A DNA stretch of 56,147 nucleotides from a virus (IMGVR_UViG_3300036760_000361:1-56147), one strand, 5' to 3'. Shown: positions 1 to 56,147, numbered from the stretch's first letter. The notes: a model not told the origin generated them from the sequence alone. Program-made: numbers and translations.

Positions 1-228
1 TCCACAGCTTTCCTTGTGTATACATTCAATACTTTCTCTCATCGAAATATTTATCACACTTTCCTAAGGGATTTACTTCATGTGGTAAATACGCCTCTCC
101 GAAACGATGAAGCCTATATAGTCTGCATCCTAGACCCGCATAGGTTTCGTGATAACTACAATTTAAACAACATTCTAAATCCTGAATAATATAATTTTCT
201 CTTTCATCAATCTCAAATTTTTCTTCTT
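1..228 (+). repeat. Terminal direct repeat, left copy (circular overlap)
   Basis: Identical to 55920-56147 except T128 versus C56047. Confidence 0.97.
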
Positions 229-834: not shown

Positions 835-1173
835 TTATTCGTAATATACTATAACTTCAAATGTATAATCAGAAGAACCACCAGCAGCCCCACTAAGAAC
901 AGCCCTTAATTTAAATCCAGAAAAAAGAGGTGCTTTTTCGTTAGTGGCACATATCTTTACACTATCTGTTTTTTCAGCAATTGCAGTCCCAGTTAGCAAC
1001 GTTCTACCACCTGGGCTAATTACAGATAAGGTAGTTGTTATTGAATCATTTGAGTAATCTGGGGTAGTAAATTCCCAACCGTGAAGACTATAACCTTGTT
1101 CCATTGGAATTGCTAAAGAATTAAAAGTTGTTCCTGTTGGATTAATTGTAATATAAACCTTTTTTATAAACAT
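835..1173 (-). CDS. Hypothetical beta-rich protein, possibly virion-associated
   Basis: ORF with RBS in the late operon; Thr/Ser/Gly-rich. Confidence 0.6.
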   Translation of the reverse strand: MFIKKVYITINPTGTTFNSLAIPMEQGYSLHGWEFTTPDYSNDSITTTLSVISPGGRTLLTGTAIAEKTDSVKICATNEKAPLFSGFKLRAVLSGAAGGSSDYTFEVIVYYE

Positions 1174-1175
1174 TC

Positions 1176-1418
1176 TTACCTCCCATAATCTCCATTTATT
1201 ATTTTTGTGTTATCACAGCAACAATGAAATTCACCCCTTCTGTAAAATTTTCCACAGTTCAAGCAATAAACCATTTCATCATCTGTAAAATCATCGTTGT
1301 CCTGATTAATATTACAGCTAATGTCTGGGAAATCCAGTGGATTGCATCTTGGACATTCTTCTACGAACGGGGCATAAACATTTCCACATTTGGGACATAT
1401 CCATCCCTTTATATTCAT
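1176..1418 (-). CDS. Zinc-ribbon protein
   Basis: GWICPKCGNVYAP...CPRC and a second CxxC; GGAGG-type RBS. Confidence 0.75.
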   Translation of the reverse strand: MNIKGWICPKCGNVYAPFVEECPRCNPLDFPDISCNINQDNDDFTDDEMVYCLNCGKFYRRGEFHCCCDNTKIINGDYGR

Positions 1419-1427
1419 GAAAACCTC

Positions 1428-1631
1428 CTATAAGGATAAATTTATTAGAACATCTACTGGCATGTACCTGGAATAGTCTTCGTCTTTGAGCAACTGCTTA
1501 ACCTTGGTCTTTGTTTTTACAGGATAGACCCTCTCACAATCGGGGCATACAAGAACTACTATAACATCCCCTTCCATGTTCTGGTACGATTCTATTTCCA
1601 GACCTGAGCCACAATGCTTACATTCTTGCAT
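1428..1631 (-). CDS. Zinc-ribbon protein, first gene of the leftward operon
   Basis: CKHCG...CPDC; likely start ATG 1631 after GGAAGGA. Confidence 0.7.
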   Translation of the reverse strand: MQECKHCGSGLEIESYQNMEGDVIVVLVCPDCERVYPVKTKTKVKQLLKDEDYSRYMPVDVLINLSL

Positions 1632-1669: not shown

Positions 1670-1698
1670 ATAATAACATAAGGGTAATATTCAGTCAA
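1670..1698 (-). promoter_or_regulatory. Sigma70-type leftward (late-arm) promoter
   Basis: TTGACT-17 nt-TATTAT with extended -10 TG; spacer resembles the promoter at 49652-49681. Confidence 0.7.
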
Positions 1699-1824
1699 AT
1701 AACTATATAGCTAATTAAGTAAATATATATAGCATAAATAGATATGCTTCATAAGTTACTGAAATATCTTAAAAAATTTAAACTATCCCTCAGCAGGAAA
1801 AAATCAGGAGGTACCAAAATAGAC

Positions 1825-2265
1825 CCTTGCTTACACACTATAGTGCGTATACCCTAATCAACAACATATTGAAATTAAAAGATAAATTGGCATTTCCCTT
1901 TTGAGTAGCTTACACACAATAGTGCGTAAAGAACAATTCCCTTATATTAATAATATATATATACTTGTATTACCAAGTATATCTATATACTAAGTAATAT
2001 ATATATTATTAAAGAGTATATATATTATTAAAAAGAAAATACTTAGTGAAACTTCGTTTCAGCGGTAAACCGCTGATTTTATTCACTTTTTTAAACCCCT
2101 ATGCACTATAGTGCGTAAGTAGTTACCACCTCAGCGAAAGGAAAGTCATTGATATTTTTGAATAATTCGATTTTGCCCTACACACTATAGTGTGTAAGCG
2201 CAAATTTACCACACCAGTGTGTCAATTTTACCACAGTATAGGTGTGTCAAAAATACCACAGTATA
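1825..2265. repeat. Origin-like locus A: four 18-bp palindromes, AT-rich core, hairpins and direct repeats
   Basis: TAYRCAC(T/A)ATAGTGYGTA at 1832, 1911, 2100 and 2179; AT-rich 1945-2040; GTGTGTCAAWWWTACCACAGTATA at 2217 and 2242. Confidence 0.8.
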
Positions 2266-2604
2266 CCCTAATGGAAATTTTACAGAAAATTTTTTCAGGA
2301 AAAAGATATTTTGGAAATATGGATATATTGGGTATATGGGGGGTATATAGCCATAGAAATTTTTTTATAATCAATGGGTTATGATAATTGGTTAAAGTAA
2401 TGGATTATGTATGGGTTTAGATACAGTTTATAAATAGTAGCCTATGACACATGCAATGGGGATTATCGTAAGTAAGGGGGGTCTCATCAGCAATCGGGGC
2501 GATGCCACCTTTTCCAGTAAAAGTAATTCTTTTTTTCCATAAGCCTTTTCCCCTTAAGGTCTTTAAAAAAAATTTTCTTTTTCCATTAGAAGTTTAAATT
2601 CAAT

Positions 2605-3045
2605 TATTAAAATGTTTAACTATAGTTATAAAAATCCTTAATAATAGTTATTAACAATTTTAATAATAAATATTAAAATCTCTAATAATGGTTATTAGAA
2701 AGTTTAATAGATGATATTAATATTATCAATAGTACCTATAGGGATATTCAATAATATCTATTAAGATATGTAATAGTCTTATTAAAAGAATTAATGGATA
2801 GTATAGGAATTATCAATAATCCTTATAGGTAAAAGTGATAATATCTATTAAAGGAATTAATAACATTATAAGAATATTTAATAGATATTGAGTAAGGTTA
2901 TATCAAGTATATTGAGTAGTATCGTATCAATAGATATGATAAGGAGTGTATCAAGTGATATTGATATTATCTATGATAACTATAGGAATATTCAATAATG
3001 TTGATTAAGGTATTTAATGGTTATATTAAAAGATTTAATGTCAGG
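2605..3045. repeat. Degenerate 21-22-bp tandem array of TATTA-N7-TAATA-like palindromes
   Basis: Units start at 2605, 2627, 2649, 2671, 2693, 2715, 2737, 2759, 2780, 2802, 2824, 2846, 2867, then 2981, 3003, 3024. Confidence 0.8.
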
Positions 3046-3562
3046 AATATGATAAGGTATCAAGCATGAATGGTTTCTTCAATCCCCTCATTTAACAGAT
3101 TTAAGCTTTGATATAATCCTACTAAAGATGGTTTATATCACTCATATAAATAGACTTTATAATGACTTATATATAGCTATTAACTAATCTATAATTAATG
3201 TTACCTATTGTTACCTTTATAGATACTATATATAGTATTGTGTATCTAACCGCTATACCATATATAGATATTTGTATCCATTGGATACAGTTTTTTAAGA
3301 TAGTTTTTAGGATTTTCTGTATAGCTCTTAAACCTTACCTTGTCTTCCTACTGCTATGCTATGCTACATGCTATTACATGCTATTGTATATTAATGCTTT
3401 ATGGTATAATAAACCTTTATATACTATTTCATTAAAGGATTTTGACGTTTGCTTTCAATAACCTTATCAAAAGGATGGGCTTACAGGTAAAATTGACATG
3501 ATATGTTATTTTTTAACAAAAAATGTTACTTTGGCATGGCATAAAAAATTAAAATCATTTAT

Positions 3563-3575
3563 TATCAATAACTTA
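3563..3575 (+). promoter_or_regulatory. IHF-binding site consensus
   Basis: TATCAATAACTTA matches WATCAANNNNTTR, 14 bp upstream of a sigma54 motif. Confidence 0.6.
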
Positions 3576-3589
3576 TAGAGATATAAAGC

Positions 3590-3605
3590 TGGCATGGCAC
3601 TTGCT
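3590..3605 (+). promoter_or_regulatory. Sigma54 (-24/-12) promoter
   Basis: TGGCATGGCACTTGCT has exact GG-N10-GC spacing; about 30 nt upstream of the first + strand gene. Confidence 0.7.
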
Positions 3606-3636
3606 ATATTTTAAAAAATGAAAGGACGGTGAGAAA

Positions 3637-3870
3637 ATGGAGACAATTAAATGCGACAAATGCGGTAAAGACATGCAATCGGTAGCAGTTGCACCGCAAA
3701 CACCTAAGAAAAAATTTGTATGTGATTGCGGTCATGCAGTAACAATTATAAAGATGGTAAATGTGATAGGCTTTAATTTAACAGATAATGGATACAAATG
3801 GATACTTGACACAGGTCAAGTTGTATCAACAGATGAGTTGATTAAACTCACCCTAAAAAATAAACAATAG
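3637..3870 (+). CDS. Zinc-ribbon hypothetical protein
   Basis: CDKCG...CDCG; RBS present. Confidence 0.7.
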   Translation: METIKCDKCGKDMQSVAVAPQTPKKKFVCDCGHAVTIIKMVNVIGFNLTDNGYKWILDTGQVVSTDELIKLTLKNKQ

Positions 3871-3899
3871 TATAATTAACAAAATAAGGAGATAGTATA

Positions 3900-4211
3900 A
3901 TGAAAGGTAAAATAAGCATAGTAACAGACAAAGGTAAAAGCACAATTACTTATTATATGGGCAATCAAATGGGAACTTCACTTAGTATATTACTAAGCGA
4001 GGTAGGGTGTCCGAGATTCTGGAGTAAGTATCCTACTCGGTACAATCCTGTAGGATATGATAGTGACATTAGGCTTAGCCATATTGTAGCAAACGCTCAC
4101 AAGTTAGGTCTACCTCCTACTGATTTATTGTATCGCATGATAGACTATCATCATACTGCAATAAAGACACATCAATATGATGTATCCGAGTGTAGCATAG
4201 AATTGGCATGA
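3900..4211 (+). CDS. Hypothetical protein
   Basis: AGGAG RBS; ATGA overlap with the next gene. Confidence 0.65.
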   Translation: MKGKISIVTDKGKSTITYYMGNQMGTSLSILLSEVGCPRFWSKYPTRYNPVGYDSDIRLSHIVANAHKLGLPPTDLLYRMIDYHHTAIKTHQYDVSECSIELA

Positions 4212-4600
4212 AAAGCATTAATGACATAATGGAAGTAAAAAAGATAGCGGATACCCTGTTAGAGTATTATGGATATTCTAACAGGGTAAATGTTATATTA
4301 AGAAAAAGTTCTTGTTCATTCATTAAACCCCTTAAGAATGAGATTACTGTGAGCCTTGTTGATGCAAGTACTAATGAGCAGATAGCTATCCATGAGATAG
4401 CTCATCTGATTACATTCCTTAGACATGGATTTATTTATAAAAACAAGAAGCGAATATCTCACGGCAAAGAGTTTATGGCTACCTTACTCGAATTAATCAA
4501 TCTATGGTATAAGGATACTGATAGATATAACTGGTACTTAGAGTATCCTTGTTTGCAGGGGTGGTACAAGCAATACAAGCTACGAAAAGAAAAAATATGA
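4208..4600 (+). CDS. SprT-like zincin metalloprotease
   Basis: HEIAH zinc motif plus downstream HGKEF motif. Confidence 0.75.
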   Translation: MKSINDIMEVKKIADTLLEYYGYSNRVNVILRKSSCSFIKPLKNEITVSLVDASTNEQIAIHEIAHLITFLRHGFIYKNKKRISHGKEFMATLLELINLWYKDTDRYNWYLEYPCLQGWYKQYKLRKEKI

Positions 4601-4803
4601 AAAAGATAAAAACTATAAGATTAAAGGAAAAACATAATGAATAAAAGAAAAGACACAATAAATAAATTGTTTACCGCTATTCTTGCAAAAAAAGTAGTTT
4701 CATATTATGCAAGGATGCAATGTCCATCTTATAAAAACAAAACAATAGTAGACTGCATGTATTGTATAAACTATAGTATATGTAATCCCAAAAAATATCT
4801 ACC

Positions 4804-5985
4804 ATGAAAAAGTTTTTATTTTGTCAATTCAGTAACAAACTCCTTAATCCTAAAAATGACAGTTTGTCTGATAGGTATTATAATGCTCTTTATGAGCATA
4901 AGGAGCAGGATGGCTATTATAGAGATAATAACTTCTTTGAATTGCCATTGTGGATAGCCGAGACATGCGGTTGTCTAACTGGTAATTTCAGAAAAGAGTT
5001 ATATATCATTACAGACATCAAACAAGCCATTAAGGACATTAGAGAAAAGTATGCCGATTACGTGCTTTTCTCTGTGTTAGACGTTAACAAGGAATATGTA
5101 GCCGAGATAGCAAGGCATTATTTAGGCAAGGCTAAAGTCTGTGTCGGTGGTTACATAGATTTTAGCTACTTCCACAATAAGAATATTCATATCTTCAATG
5201 GCATTAAGGATTTTATTGAGTACTTAGGCTTGAAGTATGAATATAACCTCGATTATAGTCTATTCTCTGCATATAAGACAATTCCCCGCTTAACACTAAG
5301 TAAAGGTTGCCTCAACCGCTGTAAATTTTGCACCGTAGAAAAAACCGTGACAGCTGTTAGTGAACTTGACATCTTAAAACAAATAGAAAGCTTTAGAGTG
5401 TTGCGGTTTAGGCTCATTTACCTTAATGATAAAACCTTTGGGCAAGCTCAAAATTTTACTATGTTATATGACTTATATAATATAGTAAAAGAATATAATC
5501 CTGATTTTTTGGGCTTTATAATTCAAACAACTTGCATGAATATTCTTGATAATAGTATACAAGAATTGCTTGAAAAAGGTATAATCTATGCTGTGGAGAT
5601 AGGTATAGAAACATTCAATGATAATTTACTCTATGCATTGAGTAAACCTCAAACAGAGCAAACAATAATTGATGCAATAGAAACTTTGAAAAAATATCAA
5701 GTAAGAATTATACCAAATATAATTATAGGTATACTCAATGAAAATGAATATACTTATGATAAAACCTTGAATTTTTTAAGGCATTATCAAAAGGATATTT
5801 ATTTATTGAATATCTATAACCTTGCTGTGTATGAAAATACAGAGCTATCACAAGAGATTATTAAGAACAGTGATAGCGATATTAATGAGAATATCACAGA
5901 TAAAAGTTTCTATTCTAAGTCTCAAAAAATAGCTAATGAAAAATTCTATAATGAAATATTTAAATTAGCTATGGAGATATTATGA
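4804..5985 (+). CDS. Radical SAM protein, possibly with an N-terminal cobalamin-binding-like domain
   Basis: SKGCLNRCKFC (CxxxCxxC), LNDKTF, IGIET and IIIGI motifs; N-terminal alpha/beta region ending VCVGG. Confidence 0.85.
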   Translation: MKKFLFCQFSNKLLNPKNDSLSDRYYNALYEHKEQDGYYRDNNFFELPLWIAETCGCLTGNFRKELYIITDIKQAIKDIREKYADYVLFSVLDVNKEYVAEIARHYLGKAKVCVGGYIDFSYFHNKNIHIFNGIKDFIEYLGLKYEYNLDYSLFSAYKTIPRLTLSKGCLNRCKFCTVEKTVTAVSELDILKQIESFRVLRFRLIYLNDKTFGQAQNFTMLYDLYNIVKEYNPDFLGFIIQTTCMNILDNSIQELLEKGIIYAVEIGIETFNDNLLYALSKPQTEQTIIDAIETLKKYQVRIIPNIIIGILNENEYTYDKTLNFLRHYQKDIYLLNIYNLAVYENTELSQEIIKNSDSDINENITDKSFYSKSQKIANEKFYNEIFKLAMEIL

Positions 5986-6587
5986 AAAACATAGAAAAGT
6001 ATTTCTCCTTAGCTAATGACACAGAAGTAAAGAATGGATTAAGCTGGTATTCTAATAGCCATAACTGCATATCTGAAATTGCAGATAAATATGGCATAGA
6101 ACATGAGATAGCCTATGCTGTTACTTCTGCATTATCCCCTCGCTGTATATGGGAAACTAACCTGAAAGACTTAGAAAAAGTTTTAGAATGGCATACAAGT
6201 TTTAGTAAAAAATCATATTTACCTATAGTTACTACCTATGTACATAATTTGAAAAAGGCAATTAATACTTTACAGTCTAAGAACACTAACGTTTTTAAAA
6301 CCTGTAAAACTTTTAATTTTTTTAATAACTTGCTTAATCCTGAAAGCGGTGATTATGTTACCATTGATGGCCATTCTATAAATATTTATTATGGAAAAAC
6401 TGGCATGGTAAAACATAAACATTTTACAAAAAAATATTACAATAGAATAGCTATGGCTTATCGCAAGGTAGCCAAAAAATATAATATATTGCCGTGTCAA
6501 ATGCAAGCTATCACATGGCTTGCATTTAAACGTATCCACAATATAAGAGTTAACTGGAGATACTATCAAGGGGATTTACCGTTTTAG
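5982..6587 (+). CDS. DUF7178-like phage protein (HhH glycosylase-like fold suspected)
   Basis: G-x-x-WY, SALSP...W-x-x-N, KT-x-N-F, VTIDGH and QAITW motifs. Confidence 0.65.
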   Translation: MKNIEKYFSLANDTEVKNGLSWYSNSHNCISEIADKYGIEHEIAYAVTSALSPRCIWETNLKDLEKVLEWHTSFSKKSYLPIVTTYVHNLKKAINTLQSKNTNVFKTCKTFNFFNNLLNPESGDYVTIDGHSINIYYGKTGMVKHKHFTKKYYNRIAMAYRKVAKKYNILPCQMQAITWLAFKRIHNIRVNWRYYQGDLPF

Positions 6588-6589
6588 CT

Positions 6590-7081
6590 ATGAATAAAGA
6601 ATTATTTAAACACCTATCCGATAAACATAACTTGAATGAGTCAGGATATTTTTATTCTAATGGCATACGGTTTTTGCGTGTCAAAGGTAACAATACTCAA
6701 ATTGAAATACTCGCATCTGAAAAGGAATTAATACAAAAGAAAAGTAAAATTGTATTTATACATAATCATCCTGTGGAAGATTGGAGTTTATCAGGATTAG
6801 ACATAAACGCTATGTTACAATTAAATATCAAAAGAATTATAGCAGTTAGCAATAAAAAAACATATATTTTAGAGCTAAAGGATGATATTAACGAAAAGGA
6901 AAAACAAGGTTTTTATGCAGAGCTAAGTAAGATTATGAATACTGCATTGAAAGTAACTAATAATTATGACAATACAAGGAATGATTTTATTGTTAGAGAA
7001 TTTGTAAAACTTAGTAATAAATTTGAATATTCTATTATAGAGAATGAAAAAGTAAATCCTGAAAGTCTAATAATGTTATGA
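6590..7081 (+). CDS. JAB/MPN-like domain protein
   Basis: HNHP...SLSGLD (HxH...S-x-x-D) metal-binding motif. Confidence 0.65.
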   Translation: MNKELFKHLSDKHNLNESGYFYSNGIRFLRVKGNNTQIEILASEKELIQKKSKIVFIHNHPVEDWSLSGLDINAMLQLNIKRIIAVSNKKTYILELKDDINEKEKQGFYAELSKIMNTALKVTNNYDNTRNDFIVREFVKLSNKFEYSIIENEKVNPESLIML

Positions 7082-7556
7082 AAAGGTTATATGAAGTTGA
7101 AATATTATCTATTAGTTACTGTAGCTATGGATTAGCCTATAGCTACTATAACTATTGTTGTAATATTGATATTGTATTGTTATTAGCCTTAACGGCTATA
7201 GGAGCTTATGTTTATGACCATCATAGACTACTTAAGATATAATAATAAGGCCGGGGATTTACTCGGTTTTAAACCTCAAACTCAGATAACTATAGTTAAG
7301 AAAAGATACTTTTGTATAGCTAAGGTTAAGTATATCCCTATCGGTAAAGCCATAAACCATTGTCTTAAGATTGACTGCAAAGCCTTAAGGCATTTTAGTA
7401 AAAACCATAAATCAATGAAAGGAAAGTGAGAAAATGAAAAAGTGTAAAGTATGCAGTTGTAAAATTGAAGTAAGTGATAGTGAGATATGTAAGTCTTGTG
7501 AGGATTGGTATTTTATACTGTATTATAAGTATAAAATATATCCTTACATACTTGAT

Positions 7557-7572
7557 TGGCATGAAACTTGCT
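7557..7572 (+). promoter_or_regulatory. Second sigma54 (-24/-12) promoter
   Basis: TGGCATGAAACTTGCT (GG-N10-GC), about 35 nt before the ATG at 7607, which has a GGAGGT RBS. Confidence 0.6.
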
Positions 7573-7606
7573 AATAAAAAGTAGAAATATGAAGGGAGGT
7601 CGAAAA

Positions 7607-7870
7607 ATGACAAGATATACCTTATATACTGAATATAAATATGGCTTAGTAGAATTAGTGAGTAAGTATTTTAAAAGTGCTACTATTCATTATGGCATCG
7701 GATTATGGCATGGTAACATTGAACACTGTGCTATGATAGAGATTATTATAGATGAGACCGATAAGAATGCTGATATACCTTTAGATAGCTTAGTATATGA
7801 TATTAAGGTTATTAATGAGCAAGAAACCGTTATGGTTGTAAAAGATAATCCGATAATCTGGTATTTGTAA
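7607..7870 (+). CDS. Small PII/ferredoxin-like protein, possible SAM-lyase or DUF3574 relative
   Basis: G-x-W-x-G-x-x-E and C-terminal QE-x-V-hydrophobic pattern; strong RBS. Confidence 0.45.
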   Translation: MTRYTLYTEYKYGLVELVSKYFKSATIHYGIGLWHGNIEHCAMIEIIIDETDKNADIPLDSLVYDIKVINEQETVMVVKDNPIIWYL

Positions 7871-7878
7871 AAAAACTC

Positions 7879-7907
7879 TTGACAAAACTATCAATCTGTG
7901 ATAGTGT
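7879..7907 (+). promoter_or_regulatory. Sigma70-type promoter
   Basis: TTGACA-17 nt-TAGTGT with extended -10 TG, intergenic. Confidence 0.55.
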
Positions 7908-7919
7908 AAAAGGAAGATT

Positions 7920-8159
7920 ATGGAAAAAGAAACTAAAGAGACCGAAAAAGAGAACAGAATAAAGGGAAGGTTTGAGAAGGAAAATAATAAAATCTTCCTG
8001 TGGTGTTATAAGGATGTACATTGGCAATACATTGACGTATGCAAGGCAAAGTGCTCAGAAAGAAGACAGAATAAATGTTATTCTTATAGACTTCTCATAG
8101 GGAATCCTATGAGAAATAGAAAGACAAAAAGAGAAGTCCGAAAAAACAAGGAGGGTTAA
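7920..8159 (+). CDS. Basic hypothetical protein
   Basis: ORF directly after a promoter, packed against the next gene. Confidence 0.6.
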   Translation: MEKETKETEKENRIKGRFEKENNKIFLWCYKDVHWQYIDVCKAKCSERRQNKCYSYRLLIGNPMRNRKTKREVRKNKEG

Positions 8160-8160
8160 A

Positions 8161-8802
8161 ATGTCAAAAAAGTATAGAATCAACAAGGATAGTAGAGTTA
8201 TGGCATTGAAGGATTTTGGTGATGTCAAAAAAGGAGATATTGGAGGATTTATAAAGCATGAAAGAAACTTATCACAGGTAGGCAAGGCGTGGATATACAA
8301 TAATGCATGGGTTTATGATGATGCAATGGTATGCGGAAACGCAAAAGTATATGGTGATGCATGGATATATGGCTATGCAACGCTATATGATAACGCAACA
8401 GTGTTTGATAAAGCAAGAGTATGTGGTAGTGCAAAGGTATATGGTGATGCAGGGATATATGGTAATGTAGCTATATACGGTAATGCATGTATTTACGATA
8501 ATGCAGAGATATATGGTCATGCAAAGATATGCGGTAATGCTAAAATATGTGGTAATGCGTGGATAGATAGCCATGCAACAGTACTCGGCGATACGTGGAA
8601 TACATCTCCATTATATATTCAAGGCTCTGTGTATAGTCTTACAAATTCAAAATATGGATATATTACTATAGGTTGTATCACATTATCTTTTGAAGATTGG
8701 AAAAAAGAAGGATTGAAAATAGCAAAGGAATATAATTTTACGGAAGAACAGATAGAGGAATATAAAGCATACATTGAATTATTTACCAAAATAGGAAAGT
8801 AA
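8161..8802 (+). CDS. Hexapeptide-repeat (left-handed beta-helix) protein
   Basis: ALKDFGDVKKGDIGGFI N-terminus and [VI]YG[ND]A repeats. Confidence 0.85.
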   Translation: MSKKYRINKDSRVMALKDFGDVKKGDIGGFIKHERNLSQVGKAWIYNNAWVYDDAMVCGNAKVYGDAWIYGYATLYDNATVFDKARVCGSAKVYGDAGIYGNVAIYGNACIYDNAEIYGHAKICGNAKICGNAWIDSHATVLGDTWNTSPLYIQGSVYSLTNSKYGYITIGCITLSFEDWKKEGLKIAKEYNFTEEQIEEYKAYIELFTKIGK

Positions 8803-13285: not shown

Positions 13286-13774
13286 ATGATAGTAAAATGC
13301 AATAAAAGATTTGATTGCCCAAATACAAAATGTGTGTGTAGTAAGGGCATAAATTCATATCCATTTTCTTTTACTTGTTTTTACACGGATGAAGAAGTAA
13401 GCGTAGAGGAAGAGGATGAAAGTGATAATGTATATATAGATGATTTTTCTTATAAACCTAAAAGCAATGAAGGAACTAAGTTTGATGACGGAAAATTGCG
13501 GTGGGATTTATTGCCATTTGATGCTCTTGAAGAAATAGTAAAAGTATATACTTATGGTTCTAAGAAATATGGAGACTATAATTATCTCGGTGGAATCAAG
13601 TATAGTAGAATAATAGGTGCTATGTTTAGGCACTTTAAGGCATGGTGGAGCGGAGAGAATATTGATGAGGAATCTGGATTACCACACTTATCCCACATGG
13701 CGTGGAATGTTATTACCCTGCTTGTTTTTTCTATAAGAAATAGAAAGGAATTAGATGATAGAAAAAATAAATAA
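13286..13774 (+). CDS. dATP/dGTP diphosphohydrolase domain protein (DUF5664-like)
   Basis: KFDDGKLRWDLLP...GSKKYG...N...RH...GE-x-x-D-x-ESGLPHL-x-H-x-x-WN. Confidence 0.85.
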   Translation: MIVKCNKRFDCPNTKCVCSKGINSYPFSFTCFYTDEEVSVEEEDESDNVYIDDFSYKPKSNEGTKFDDGKLRWDLLPFDALEEIVKVYTYGSKKYGDYNYLGGIKYSRIIGAMFRHFKAWWSGENIDEESGLPHLSHMAWNVITLLVFSIRNRKELDDRKNK

Positions 13775-52004: not shown

Positions 52005-53417
52005 CTAATATCCTCCTATGCTTGGAACAATATATGTACTCTTCTTTTTATTTAAACTTTGTCTTCTGCTCATTTTTTCCATTAAATTTCTGTAATATAA
52101 TGCTGCATACGATAATGCTTCCATTATATGCGAATATCTATTTTTCTTAGGGATGCCCCTCTTGTCCTTAACATATCCAGCATTAAATGCACGCCTTATA
52201 GTTTTACACGTTGGTGAACATTGTAATGCTGGTTTTCCATATTCCTTTAGGTCTTGCAAGAAGAAATTAATTGCATCTATTCTTGCAGTAGGTGAATTAC
52301 TGGAGGCAAGTTGAACATACCATCCTTCCTTGGACAAGACCTGAAAGCATGTTCTTTCATCTACTTGACTTCTAACCTTAACAGCATTTGGGTCTCCAAT
52401 AATGATGACTTTTGCATCTCTATATTTCTGTATCAATAATGGTTTTAATTTATTTTTTATAAATCTCTCTACTCCCATTTCTTCACTTACTAATTCATCT
52501 AATATATTAAAATTACCTAATGGATTAAATTGAGTAATAGCACAAGCTGGAGTTAATCCAAAGTCAAATCCTATTACTAAATCAAATCCCCTTAGAAAAC
52601 CTATCTCTTCCTTTGCCATGTGCAGATGGTCAACCCATGTTGCACCAAATACAGGTTCACCTTCCCTTACAAATCCATATTGATTCTCAAGATAAACCTT
52701 AACAAAATCCGCATCCTTACCATGCAGCATATTTTCATAATATCCAGGTTGAAGATTTTTTACATTCTCCGATTCTGGAGACAATGCCGATGGCTGAATA
52801 AACTGTTCCCATCCCTCTGGTGGTGGTTTTTCTCCATCAAAAATCTCATGCCACCAAGAATCTTCATCTGGTGCATTTGTGTCCATTATAATTCCATATC
52901 TCGTAGCACCACCATCTCTCATGGATGGATACCTTGGTATACGGGAATCTATTAAATCTATAATTCCTTTCGGAACTTCCCTGGCTTCATTTATCCACGC
53001 ACCAGTCATTTCAACAGAAAGAAGATTCCCAATATCGTCTTCGTCATCTAATGCTCTGAAGCAAAATTCTATTTCTGTATCTTTAAATTTAGTTATAAGA
53101 TAATTTTTATCTGTTCTATTATAATGACCAAATAATTTTTCTGGTAACCAATGGAATACAGTCCTTATAGTTGAATCTTTGAGCTGGCGGTAGGAATTTC
53201 TTACTATAAACCATCTTGTCCTTCTTACTCCATCCACTGGCGATGGTTGCTGTTGAAGTCCTAATCTTACGAGTTCCCAGACCATGGCTGATGATTTTCC
53301 AGAACCAATAACTCCCCTAACCCCACGAACCCTTGCCTTTGATTCAGCAAATCGCTTTAGTGTTGGAACATCATCATAGGAGTATACTATTATATTTTTA
53401 TTTTCAGTTTCTTCCAT
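52005..53417 (-). CDS. terL: Terminase large subunit
   Basis: Walker A GVIGSGKS, Walker B TGAWINEARE, MDTN coupling motif, GFDFGLTPA nuclease motif, SH..EAL.Y. Confidence 0.95.
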   Translation of the reverse strand: MEETENKNIIVYSYDDVPTLKRFAESKARVRGVRGVIGSGKSSAMVWELVRLGLQQQPSPVDGVRRTRWFIVRNSYRQLKDSTIRTVFHWLPEKLFGHYNRTDKNYLITKFKDTEIEFCFRALDDEDDIGNLLSVEMTGAWINEAREVPKGIIDLIDSRIPRYPSMRDGGATRYGIIMDTNAPDEDSWWHEIFDGEKPPPEGWEQFIQPSALSPESENVKNLQPGYYENMLHGKDADFVKVYLENQYGFVREGEPVFGATWVDHLHMAKEEIGFLRGFDLVIGFDFGLTPACAITQFNPLGNFNILDELVSEEMGVERFIKNKLKPLLIQKYRDAKVIIIGDPNAVKVRSQVDERTCFQVLSKEGWYVQLASSNSPTARIDAINFFLQDLKEYGKPALQCSPTCKTIRRAFNAGYVKDKRGIPKKNRYSHIMEALSYAALYYRNLMEKMSRRQSLNKKKSTYIVPSIGGY

Positions 53418-55919: not shown

Positions 55920-56147
55920 TCCACAGCTTTCCTTGTGTATACATTCAATACTTTCTCTCATCGAAATATTTATCACACTTTCCTAAGGGATTTACTTCAT
56001 GTGGTAAATACGCCTCTCCGAAACGATGAAGCCTATATAGTCTGCACCCTAGACCCGCATAGGTTTCGTGATAACTACAATTTAAACAACATTCTAAATC
56101 CTGAATAATATAATTTTCTCTTTCATCAATCTCAAATTTTTCTTCTT
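55920..56147 (+). repeat. Terminal direct repeat, right copy
   Basis: Matches 1-228 with one mismatch. Confidence 0.97.

Follow-up and report, generated by a model that had tools for sequence, protein, structure and literature searches.

The window analysed here is the entire virus record IMGVR_UViG_3300036760_000361 (56,147 nt; all positions are counted in the whole stretch), which carries on its plus strand two motifs of the sigma-54 (RpoN) -24/-12 type, the first at the head of the rightward early/replication operon. The genome is SU10-like and podovirus-type with 34% GC (28–39% in 2-kb windows), and its direct terminal repeat makes the record look like a complete genome of about 55.9 kb, suggesting that the whole phage is present; the virus collection's own label for the record is linear and 74% complete. 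The minus-strand genes run from 1679 down to 26 and then, via the terminal repeat, from about 55815 to 24777, and include a lysis-like cassette (no clear spanin was recognised among the lysis genes of the window), the large terminase TerL (52005–53417), an SU10-type portal and adaptor, capsid, and tail. Between these genes and a plus-strand block (3637–24573) lies a non-coding region of 1.96 kb (1680–3636). The plus-strand block encodes a primase, a single-stranded DNA-binding protein (SSB), a Rad52-like protein, an O-like initiator, a DnaB-like helicase, and nucleases. Searches with Pfam and PHROGs found no RNA polymerase, sigma factor, DNA polymerase, integrase, or repressor family among the 95 open reading frames (ORFs) of the window; given this and its gene content, the block looks like the early/replication operon of a lytic phage dependent on host polymerases. 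A tRNA search of the window found none. The features of the window that concern us most are as follows.

1..228 = 55920..56147, no strand: direct terminal repeat of 228 bp (99.6% identity)
3563..3575, plus strand: element TATCAATAACTTA with the consensus of integration host factor (IHF), at about -53 to -41 from the predicted start; it fits WATCAANNNNTTR, which we take to be the IHF consensus
3590..3605, plus strand: site 1, TGGCATGGCACTTGCT, candidate sigma-54-type -24/-12 promoter, an exact consensus match kept in the close relative L001
3637..3870, plus strand: opening gene downstream of site 1; its 77-aa product is Cys-rich and zinc-ribbon-like and matches no family
3900..7574, plus strand: block of nine ORFs between sites 1 and 2, not found in L001
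7557..7572, plus strand: site 2, TGGCATGAAACTTGCT, sigma-54-type -24/-12 motif, an exact consensus match
7607..7870, plus strand: opening gene downstream of site 2; its 87-aa product matches no family

At both sites a -24 GG and a -12 (T)GC are separated by exactly 10 bases, the defining elements and spacing of sigma-54 promoters according to PMC3844500; the L001 site and the four exact sites of the wider clade, described below, show them as well. Together with the corresponding site of L001, the window sites also fit the extended consensus TGGCA(C/T)(G/A)-N4-TTGC(A/T), as printed in PMC11704786, including its G-R extension. An initial sequence-only reading had placed two motifs of exact -24/-12 spacing at 3590 and 7557, shortly upstream of start codons, with the second lying in the 3′ end of a small ORF, and all of this holds: the 16-mers are found at these positions on the plus strand, the distances from the site starts to ATG 3637 and ATG 7607, both on the coding strand and both preceded by sequences like a Shine–Dalgarno (SD) element, are 47 and 50 nt, and site 2 consists of the last five codons and the stop (W-H-E-T-C-stop) of a 46-codon Cys-rich ORF (7434–7574). 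An inverted partner copy is present at neither site.

The motifs were scored by consensus scans, shuffles, and pattern controls. The two sites are the sole exact matches to TGGCAY-N5-TTGCW on both strands of the 56-kb genome, against 0.18 expected from shuffled sequence (2 of 100 shuffles reach two) and 0.14 under a first-order Markov model (Poisson P(≥2) = 0.009). With up to one mismatch allowed, eight matches stand against 3.89 expected, a number reached by 5 of 100 shuffles, and none of the six additional matches falls in a gap between called ORFs. A graded scan of the genome gave no further site scoring as high as these two, and the bare GG-N10-GC core is uninformative (176 matches, 134 expected). 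Since (position, strand) pairs lying 30–100 nt upstream of a called gene start make up only about 5.8% of the genome, the joint chance of the count and the positions is about 3e-5. For comparison, the strict pattern fits 10 of the 29 intergenic Salmonella sigma-54 sites supported by chromatin immunoprecipitation on microarrays (ChIP-chip) in Table 3 of PMC3844500, as counted here from that table, in which TGGCAT can be read at 11 of the same 29; by consensus, the phage sites match the best third of these experimentally supported sites. The motifs and their placement are confirmed, and the motifs fit much better than chance would give.

Conservation of site 1, a check suggested at the outset, was seen in the one close relative available. 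This relative (L001, also G001; an IMG/VR contig of 54,244 bases) has a TerL 70% identical to that of the window and the same gene order; when viral contigs were scanned with TerL, first as a single protein and also with two sequences, no other locus came up. Its early operon is headed by TGGCATGGGACTTGCTATATTT, which is the sole exact consensus match in its 54,244 bases, and the IHF-like element is kept as well. Whereas the flanks have changed by substitutions and indels, TGGCATGG-N-ACTTGCTATATTT is retained, and in the alignment of the two upstream regions the conserved islands are the sigma-54 motif, the IHF-like element, and the ATGCTAT / ACATGCTATT repeats. Window genes 3637–8700 are missing from L001, and hence so is the region of site 2. 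L001 also has, at 2840–2855 on the minus strand and 24 nt downstream of its exact motif, a degenerate second copy with two mismatches (TGACATGAACATTTCA). Another TerL homologue (P0002, 84% identical) lies on a 12-kb contig. A metagenome scan with TerL gave nine loci, of which seven are shorter than 3.5 kb, one is 5.1 kb, and one is 20 kb (TerL 29% identical). Two DNA sequencing runs yielded just the source contigs and short fragments of low depth, with nothing informative at the motifs. Exact 16-mer and 19-mer scans of viral contigs gave 28 and 27 loci, about chance level by a rough estimate, and no further relative.

The motif recurs in the wider TerL clade. With an alignment built from TerL homologues, 79 further viral loci were retrieved (from 80 of 479 TerL relatives; 910,095 bases; TerL 39–52% identical), and these contain six exact matches to TGGCAY-N5-TTGCW where 1.96 are expected. 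Two of the six are intragenic (L090 and L121). The other four, TGGCACGCCGATTGCT in L108, TGGCATACAGATTGCT in L149, TGGCATGCAACTTGCA in L103, and TGGCACCGTCATTGCA in L087, lie in non-coding DNA 2–5 kb upstream of TerL, on the strand opposite to it, and 55–100 nt before the SD sequence and ATG with which a divergent operon opens, positions at which about 0.11 exact matches would be expected (1.96 × 0.058, with the positional fraction of the window). These divergent operons carry early-type genes: an amidoligase with GATase, DUF932 with GP88, and a MoxR/AAA_5-like ATPase with DUF3150. The four sites have different spacers (GCCGA, ACAGA, GCAAC, and CGTCA) while TGGCAY and TTGCW are kept, which argues for selection for sigma-54 recognition rather than for a sequence-specific operator. 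Two further loci, L095 and L146, add one-mismatch sites in the same position. Under a conservative filter with up to one mismatch, 4 of 26 matches to the real pattern are operon-head-like, as against 1 of 113 for the four control patterns (reversed, halves swapped, spacer +1, and spacer -1).

The DNA upstream of site 1 holds several further elements that may bear on its regulation.

1829..2198, no strand: four 18–20-bp palindromes of the type TTACACAC-TATA-GTGCGTAA
2723–2741 and 2810–2828, plus strand: the other two copies of TTATCAAT-N-TATAG, located in AT-rich repeats of roughly 87 nt
3352..3392, plus strand: ATGCTAT / ACATGCTATT direct-repeat block, a candidate enhancer or regulator site and the second conserved block in the window–L001 alignment
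3402..3410, plus strand: TGGTATAAT, an extended -10 sigma-70-like candidate upstream of site 1, not kept in L001
3533..3543, plus strand: TGGCATGGCAT, a half-site resembling -24 but lacking a -12 element; it lies 57 nt upstream of site 1 and is absent from L001

The IHF-like element has AT-rich DNA on its 5′ side and begins 27 nt upstream of the motif both in the window and in L001, where it reads TATCAATGGGTTA. TATCAATAACTTA also belongs to a repeat family, TTATCAAT-N4-6-TATAG, with three copies against 0.03 expected, all in the non-coding region. L146 has an IHF-consensus match at -50 in reverse orientation, and a search for the composite pattern of the IHF element plus the -24 motif returned just L001 and two chance matches. 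The ATGCTAT / ACATGCTATT block is located about 225–265 nt upstream of the predicted start of site 1. Dyads of the form TTACRCA concentrate at 1831–2197 of the window (5 of 20 matches in the genome), and are found 113–305 nt upstream of the sigma-54 motif in L087 and 52–92 nt upstream in L103. The palindromes at 1829–2198 probably bind a regulator common to the clade, as operators or enhancers. They follow one another at distances of 79 or 189 nt, with the leftward (late and lysis) operon on one side and the AT-rich repeats on the other. A very AT-rich stretch (2600–3060) contains three 87–96-nt repeats and many nested inverted repeats, and is possibly a replication origin or a packaging or regulatory region. 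A sigma-70 consensus scan of the genome showed no enrichment (50 sites, 45 expected).

The sequence-only reading had recognised no sigma-54 activator in the genome, and profile searches of the ORFs and of all six frames agree: no enhancer-binding protein was found in the window (Pfam and PHROGs on the 95 ORFs; PF00158 in six frames), nor was the sigma-54 DNA-binding domain PF04552 (six frames; the window alone was scanned), and L001 gave no match to the sigma-54 activator domain in six frames. The sole PF00158 match, in G005, belongs to a MoxR/AAA_5-like ATPase. With no recognisable activator of its own, the phage would have to be served by one from the host. As to that host, a DNA search in the phage collection gave nothing informative; a search of genome contigs gave a TerL 33% identical in a metagenome-assembled genome (MAG) of Pseudobdellovibrionaceae and 48-residue tail-fibre matches in two MAGs, all distant. 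The cultured phages with related TerL mostly infect Proteobacteria, which is merely a hint on the host.

The sigma-54 holoenzyme binds the -24 GG and the -12 TGC as a closed complex that it cannot open alone; an AAA+ enhancer-binding protein hydrolyses ATP to open the complex, and transcription starts about 12 nt after the GC. On the best-supported reading, to which we assign a probability of roughly 0.7, site 1 is a genuine promoter dependent on host RpoN and needing a host activator, while for site 2 the same assignment is an even call. In this scheme, host RNA polymerase with sigma-54 would read site 1, and probably site 2, from predicted transcription starts near 3616 and 7583, leaving leaders of about 20 nt before the SD sequence and ATG. 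A host AAA+ activator would either work in solution or bind somewhere on the phage DNA, the ATGCTAT repeat block (3352–3392) and the TTACRCA dyads being the candidates, and the TATCAAT element at about -47 may assist by bending the DNA. An enhancer in the phage DNA is not strictly required, since DctD250, an activator without a DNA-binding domain, drives diverse sigma-54 promoters from solution, as described in PMC3844500. The analysis establishes the motifs, where they lie, their conservation and recurrence in the clade, and the lack of a recognisable phage activator, while binding by sigma-54, the places where transcription starts, which activator serves, and any gating on host physiology are inferred; a role of IHF and a gating by host signalling are plausible, and go beyond the findings.

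Several observations weigh against this assignment. The perfect IHF consensus reported upstream of site 1 by the sequence-only reading does fit, and its offset is kept in L001, but IHF-consensus matches occur at chance frequency in this AT-rich genome (10 matches, 9.53 expected), and none lies at the 27-nt offset in the four exact and two one-mismatch sites of the distant relatives. The search for enhancer dyads proposed at the same time was unsuccessful, as no convincing dyad was found within 300 nt upstream of site 1, where the conserved block at 3352–3392 consists of direct repeats. Site 2 sits in the end of an ORF, and L001 lacks that region for a comparison of conservation. In the clade the trait is patchy, with four exact sites, or six with up to one mismatch, among 79 loci; 39 of the 79 have more than 3 kb upstream of TerL, and most of those carry no site. 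The motif of L149 is overlapped by a 103-codon ORF on the other strand, the one-mismatch site of L146 can also be read as sigma-70 (TTGACT-17-TAGAAT), and an intergenic exact site is missing from all five of the cultured phages with distantly related TerL, the single match among them lying inside a DNA polymerase gene. A recognisable activator is absent from the phage and from the four relatives scanned, and for a lytic phage it is risky to place its first genes under a promoter that strictly requires an activator.

The -12 element of site 1, like that of the L001 site, overlaps TGCTATATT, a good extended -10, which also counts against the sigma-54 assignment and opens the way to a different one, namely that site 1 is an ordinary sigma-70 promoter with this extended -10, that the conserved TGGCATGG upstream of it serves as operator to some regulator of the phage or the host, and that the likeness to sigma-54 is coincidental. 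The housekeeping holoenzyme is what normally transcribes the early genes of phages; the window and L001 share TGnTATATT, and TGGCATGGCA occurs twice in the window, 57 nt apart, in the manner of an operator. We nevertheless consider this explanation improbable. The upstream TGGCATGGCA copy is not found in L001, and TGCTATATT leaves the conserved TGGCATG unexplained. The extended -10 TGnTAnnnT, seen at site 1 and in L001 (TGCTATATT), is absent at site 2, L108, and L087; site 2 has no usable -10, as its TAATAA lacks the final T (TGCTAATAA), L108 and L087 show by inspection no matching -10 or -35, and L149 only a weak one. Sigma-70 is thus not the common denominator of these sites, whereas what unites them throughout the clade is just the sigma-54 consensus, around spacers that vary. 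Rather more serious is a doubt that touches site 2 alone, which may be a coding coincidence within ORF 7434–7574 with only site 1 functional: it lies inside the ORF, no relative has the region, and one chance exact match per genome is not rare (0.14–0.18 expected). Site 2 nonetheless shares with site 1 and the L001 site its strand, the 47–50-nt distance to the ATG, and the form TGGCATG-R-N-ACTTGCTA, and the ORF stops inside the motif, so that the coding constraint on it is weak. A coincidence at site 2 is a substantial possibility, with a weight of somewhat more than one in three.

A factor that escaped the searches, such as a phage sigma-like or DNA-binding protein, might read the motif in place of host sigma-54. 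No family match was obtained for many of the early ORFs, the motif is followed by small Cys-rich proteins in the window and in L001, and the same type of 16-mer occurs in unrelated viral contigs as clustered inverted pairs, unlike simple promoters. Yet a promoter heading the early operon must act before any phage protein exists, the genome has just two copies and none before late genes, no RNA polymerase or sigma family was found, and the positions that are kept coincide exactly with the sigma-54 consensus; such a factor is accordingly quite improbable. Slightly less probable still, and very unlikely in our estimation, is that the sites bind sigma-54 holoenzyme without being promoters, the stable closed complex serving as a roadblock, insulator, or sink, for example against transcripts from upstream sigma-70-like sites. 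The window and L001 each have a non-conserved sigma-70-like candidate upstream, and 41 of 70 Salmonella sigma-54 sites occupied in vivo are intragenic and of unknown role according to PMC3844500. All of the phage sites, however, lie at promoter distance before an SD sequence and ATG, on the coding strand, in several phages.

The RpoN-dependent reading of site 1 can be set beside known systems. Classical sigma-54 promoters in which an IHF site lies between the enhancer and the promoter include Pu, nifH, glnHp2, and pspA. Site 1 resembles them in its TGGCAY-N5-TTGCW core and G-R extension, in the AT-rich element of IHF consensus whose centre is near -47, and in the conserved repeats some 200–260 nt upstream, a candidate enhancer, and differs from them in belonging to a lytic phage genome, in having no cognate activator gene nearby, and in showing direct repeats instead of dyads. 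Promoter classes specified by phages themselves (T4 late, phiEco32 gp36, T7-like, and N4) likewise place a short conserved non-sigma-70 motif before phage genes, but their motifs are present in many copies per genome, precede middle or late genes, and depend on a phage-encoded factor, whereas the window has its two copies where the early region begins, and no family of sigma factors or polymerases was found in it. The nearest precedent is the Pseudomonas aeruginosa phage YuA, development of which depends strictly on host sigma-54 according to PMC5053324 (see also PMC10914365). The remark of the sequence-only reading that sigma-54 use is unusual for phages is fair, though a precedent exists: such use is described as rare, YuA is the only phage that the passages in these sources cite for it, and the open-access literature searched turned up no other natural phage case.

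The YuA record (NC_010116) annotates three active promoters with the label '-24/-12 consensus sequence' in the structural (late) region, and -35/-10 promoters near early genes; its three annotated fragments contain no plus-strand match to TGGCAY-N5-TTGCW with up to two mismatches. Like YuA, the phage of the window has neither its own activator nor its own sigma-54 and is predicted to use -24/-12 promoters and host sigma-54 for part of its programme. Unlike YuA, where the sites lie in the structural region, it has perfect consensus sites that head the early/replication operon, and they recur in a group of uncultivated phages. YuA is, moreover, a siphovirus-type phage of a GC-rich host, in contrast to the SU10-like podovirus-type genome with 34% GC examined here.

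Motifs of this type were also seen in other viral contigs. For TGGCATG-NN-ACTTGCT, at least 17 of 47 distinct contexts (loci L002–L056) lie outside ORFs of 70 codons or more, and sigma-54 promoters may be under-annotated in viral metagenomes. Several of these contexts stand before an SD sequence and ATG beside phage genes, including terminase, DnaB/primase, PhoH, SpoVR, and GP88. In unrelated viral contigs, sigma-54-type 16-mers are clustered, with up to 9–10 copies per 200–600 bases, far beyond chance: in L032 at about 1870–2080 (minus strand), in L026 at 950–1560 (plus strand; the same as L002), in L012 at 1500–1690, and in L037, L039, L042, L047, and L038. The clustered copies pair with an inverted copy 0–25 nt away (...CTTGCT-loop-AGCAAG...CRTGCCA), forming imperfect palindromes or hairpins of 36–40 bp, sometimes three to five in tandem, in divergent intergenic regions with no activator gene nearby. 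Rfam families were found neither in these motif arrays nor in the window. Convergent promoters, decoys for the sigma-54 holoenzyme, and hairpin elements are possibilities for such clusters.

Within the early block itself, the translation-initiation regions at 3616–3640 and 7413–7437 are nearly identical (ATGAAAGGA-NN-GTGAGAAAATG), and the genes starting at 3637 and 7434 each code for a small protein rich in Cys, a property shared by the product of the first early gene in L001. The block at 3900–7574 contains a weak SprT-like match, a radical SAM (S-adenosylmethionine) protein (4804–5985), and DUF7178 (5982–6587). The latter two adjoin each other (4804–6587), are both missing from the close relative, and may be an accessory or anti-defence module. 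A protein-atlas model gives the radical SAM protein a B12-binding-like fold; in the protein atlas it falls among only viral and mixed bacterial radical SAM clusters, and used as a query it retrieved no viral locus. Further into the early block, the ORF at 13286–13774 has a dATP/dGTP diphosphohydrolase N-terminal domain (PF18909).

A bolder form of the proposal would hold that a clade of SU10-like, uncultivated lytic podophages has placed its whole early programme behind host sigma-54, so that it fires only with an active host enhancer-binding ATPase, and, in its boldest version, that this activator is switched on by phage entry itself (a PspF-type phage-shock protein, another stress-activated one, or one without a DNA-binding domain). 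We regard this as less likely than not, though worth stating for what would follow: infection itself would be the trigger, host physiology would decide whether infection proceeds, and the TTACRCA dyads and ATGCTAT repeats would be borrowed enhancers.

While phage use of sigma-54 is itself known from YuA, as the sources cited above describe, the perfect consensus, its place at the head of an early operon, and its recurrence in related phages set the present case apart. A sigma-54 promoter is silent without its ATP-driven activator, and the development of a lytic phage would thereby become conditional on a host signalling protein, a logic unlike that of the usual strong sigma-70 early promoters or injected polymerases. 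If confirmed, the assignment predicts a host with rpoN and probably IHF, and the tightly off phage promoters would be of possible use in engineering. It would also provide a testable case of host-state gating of lytic infection.

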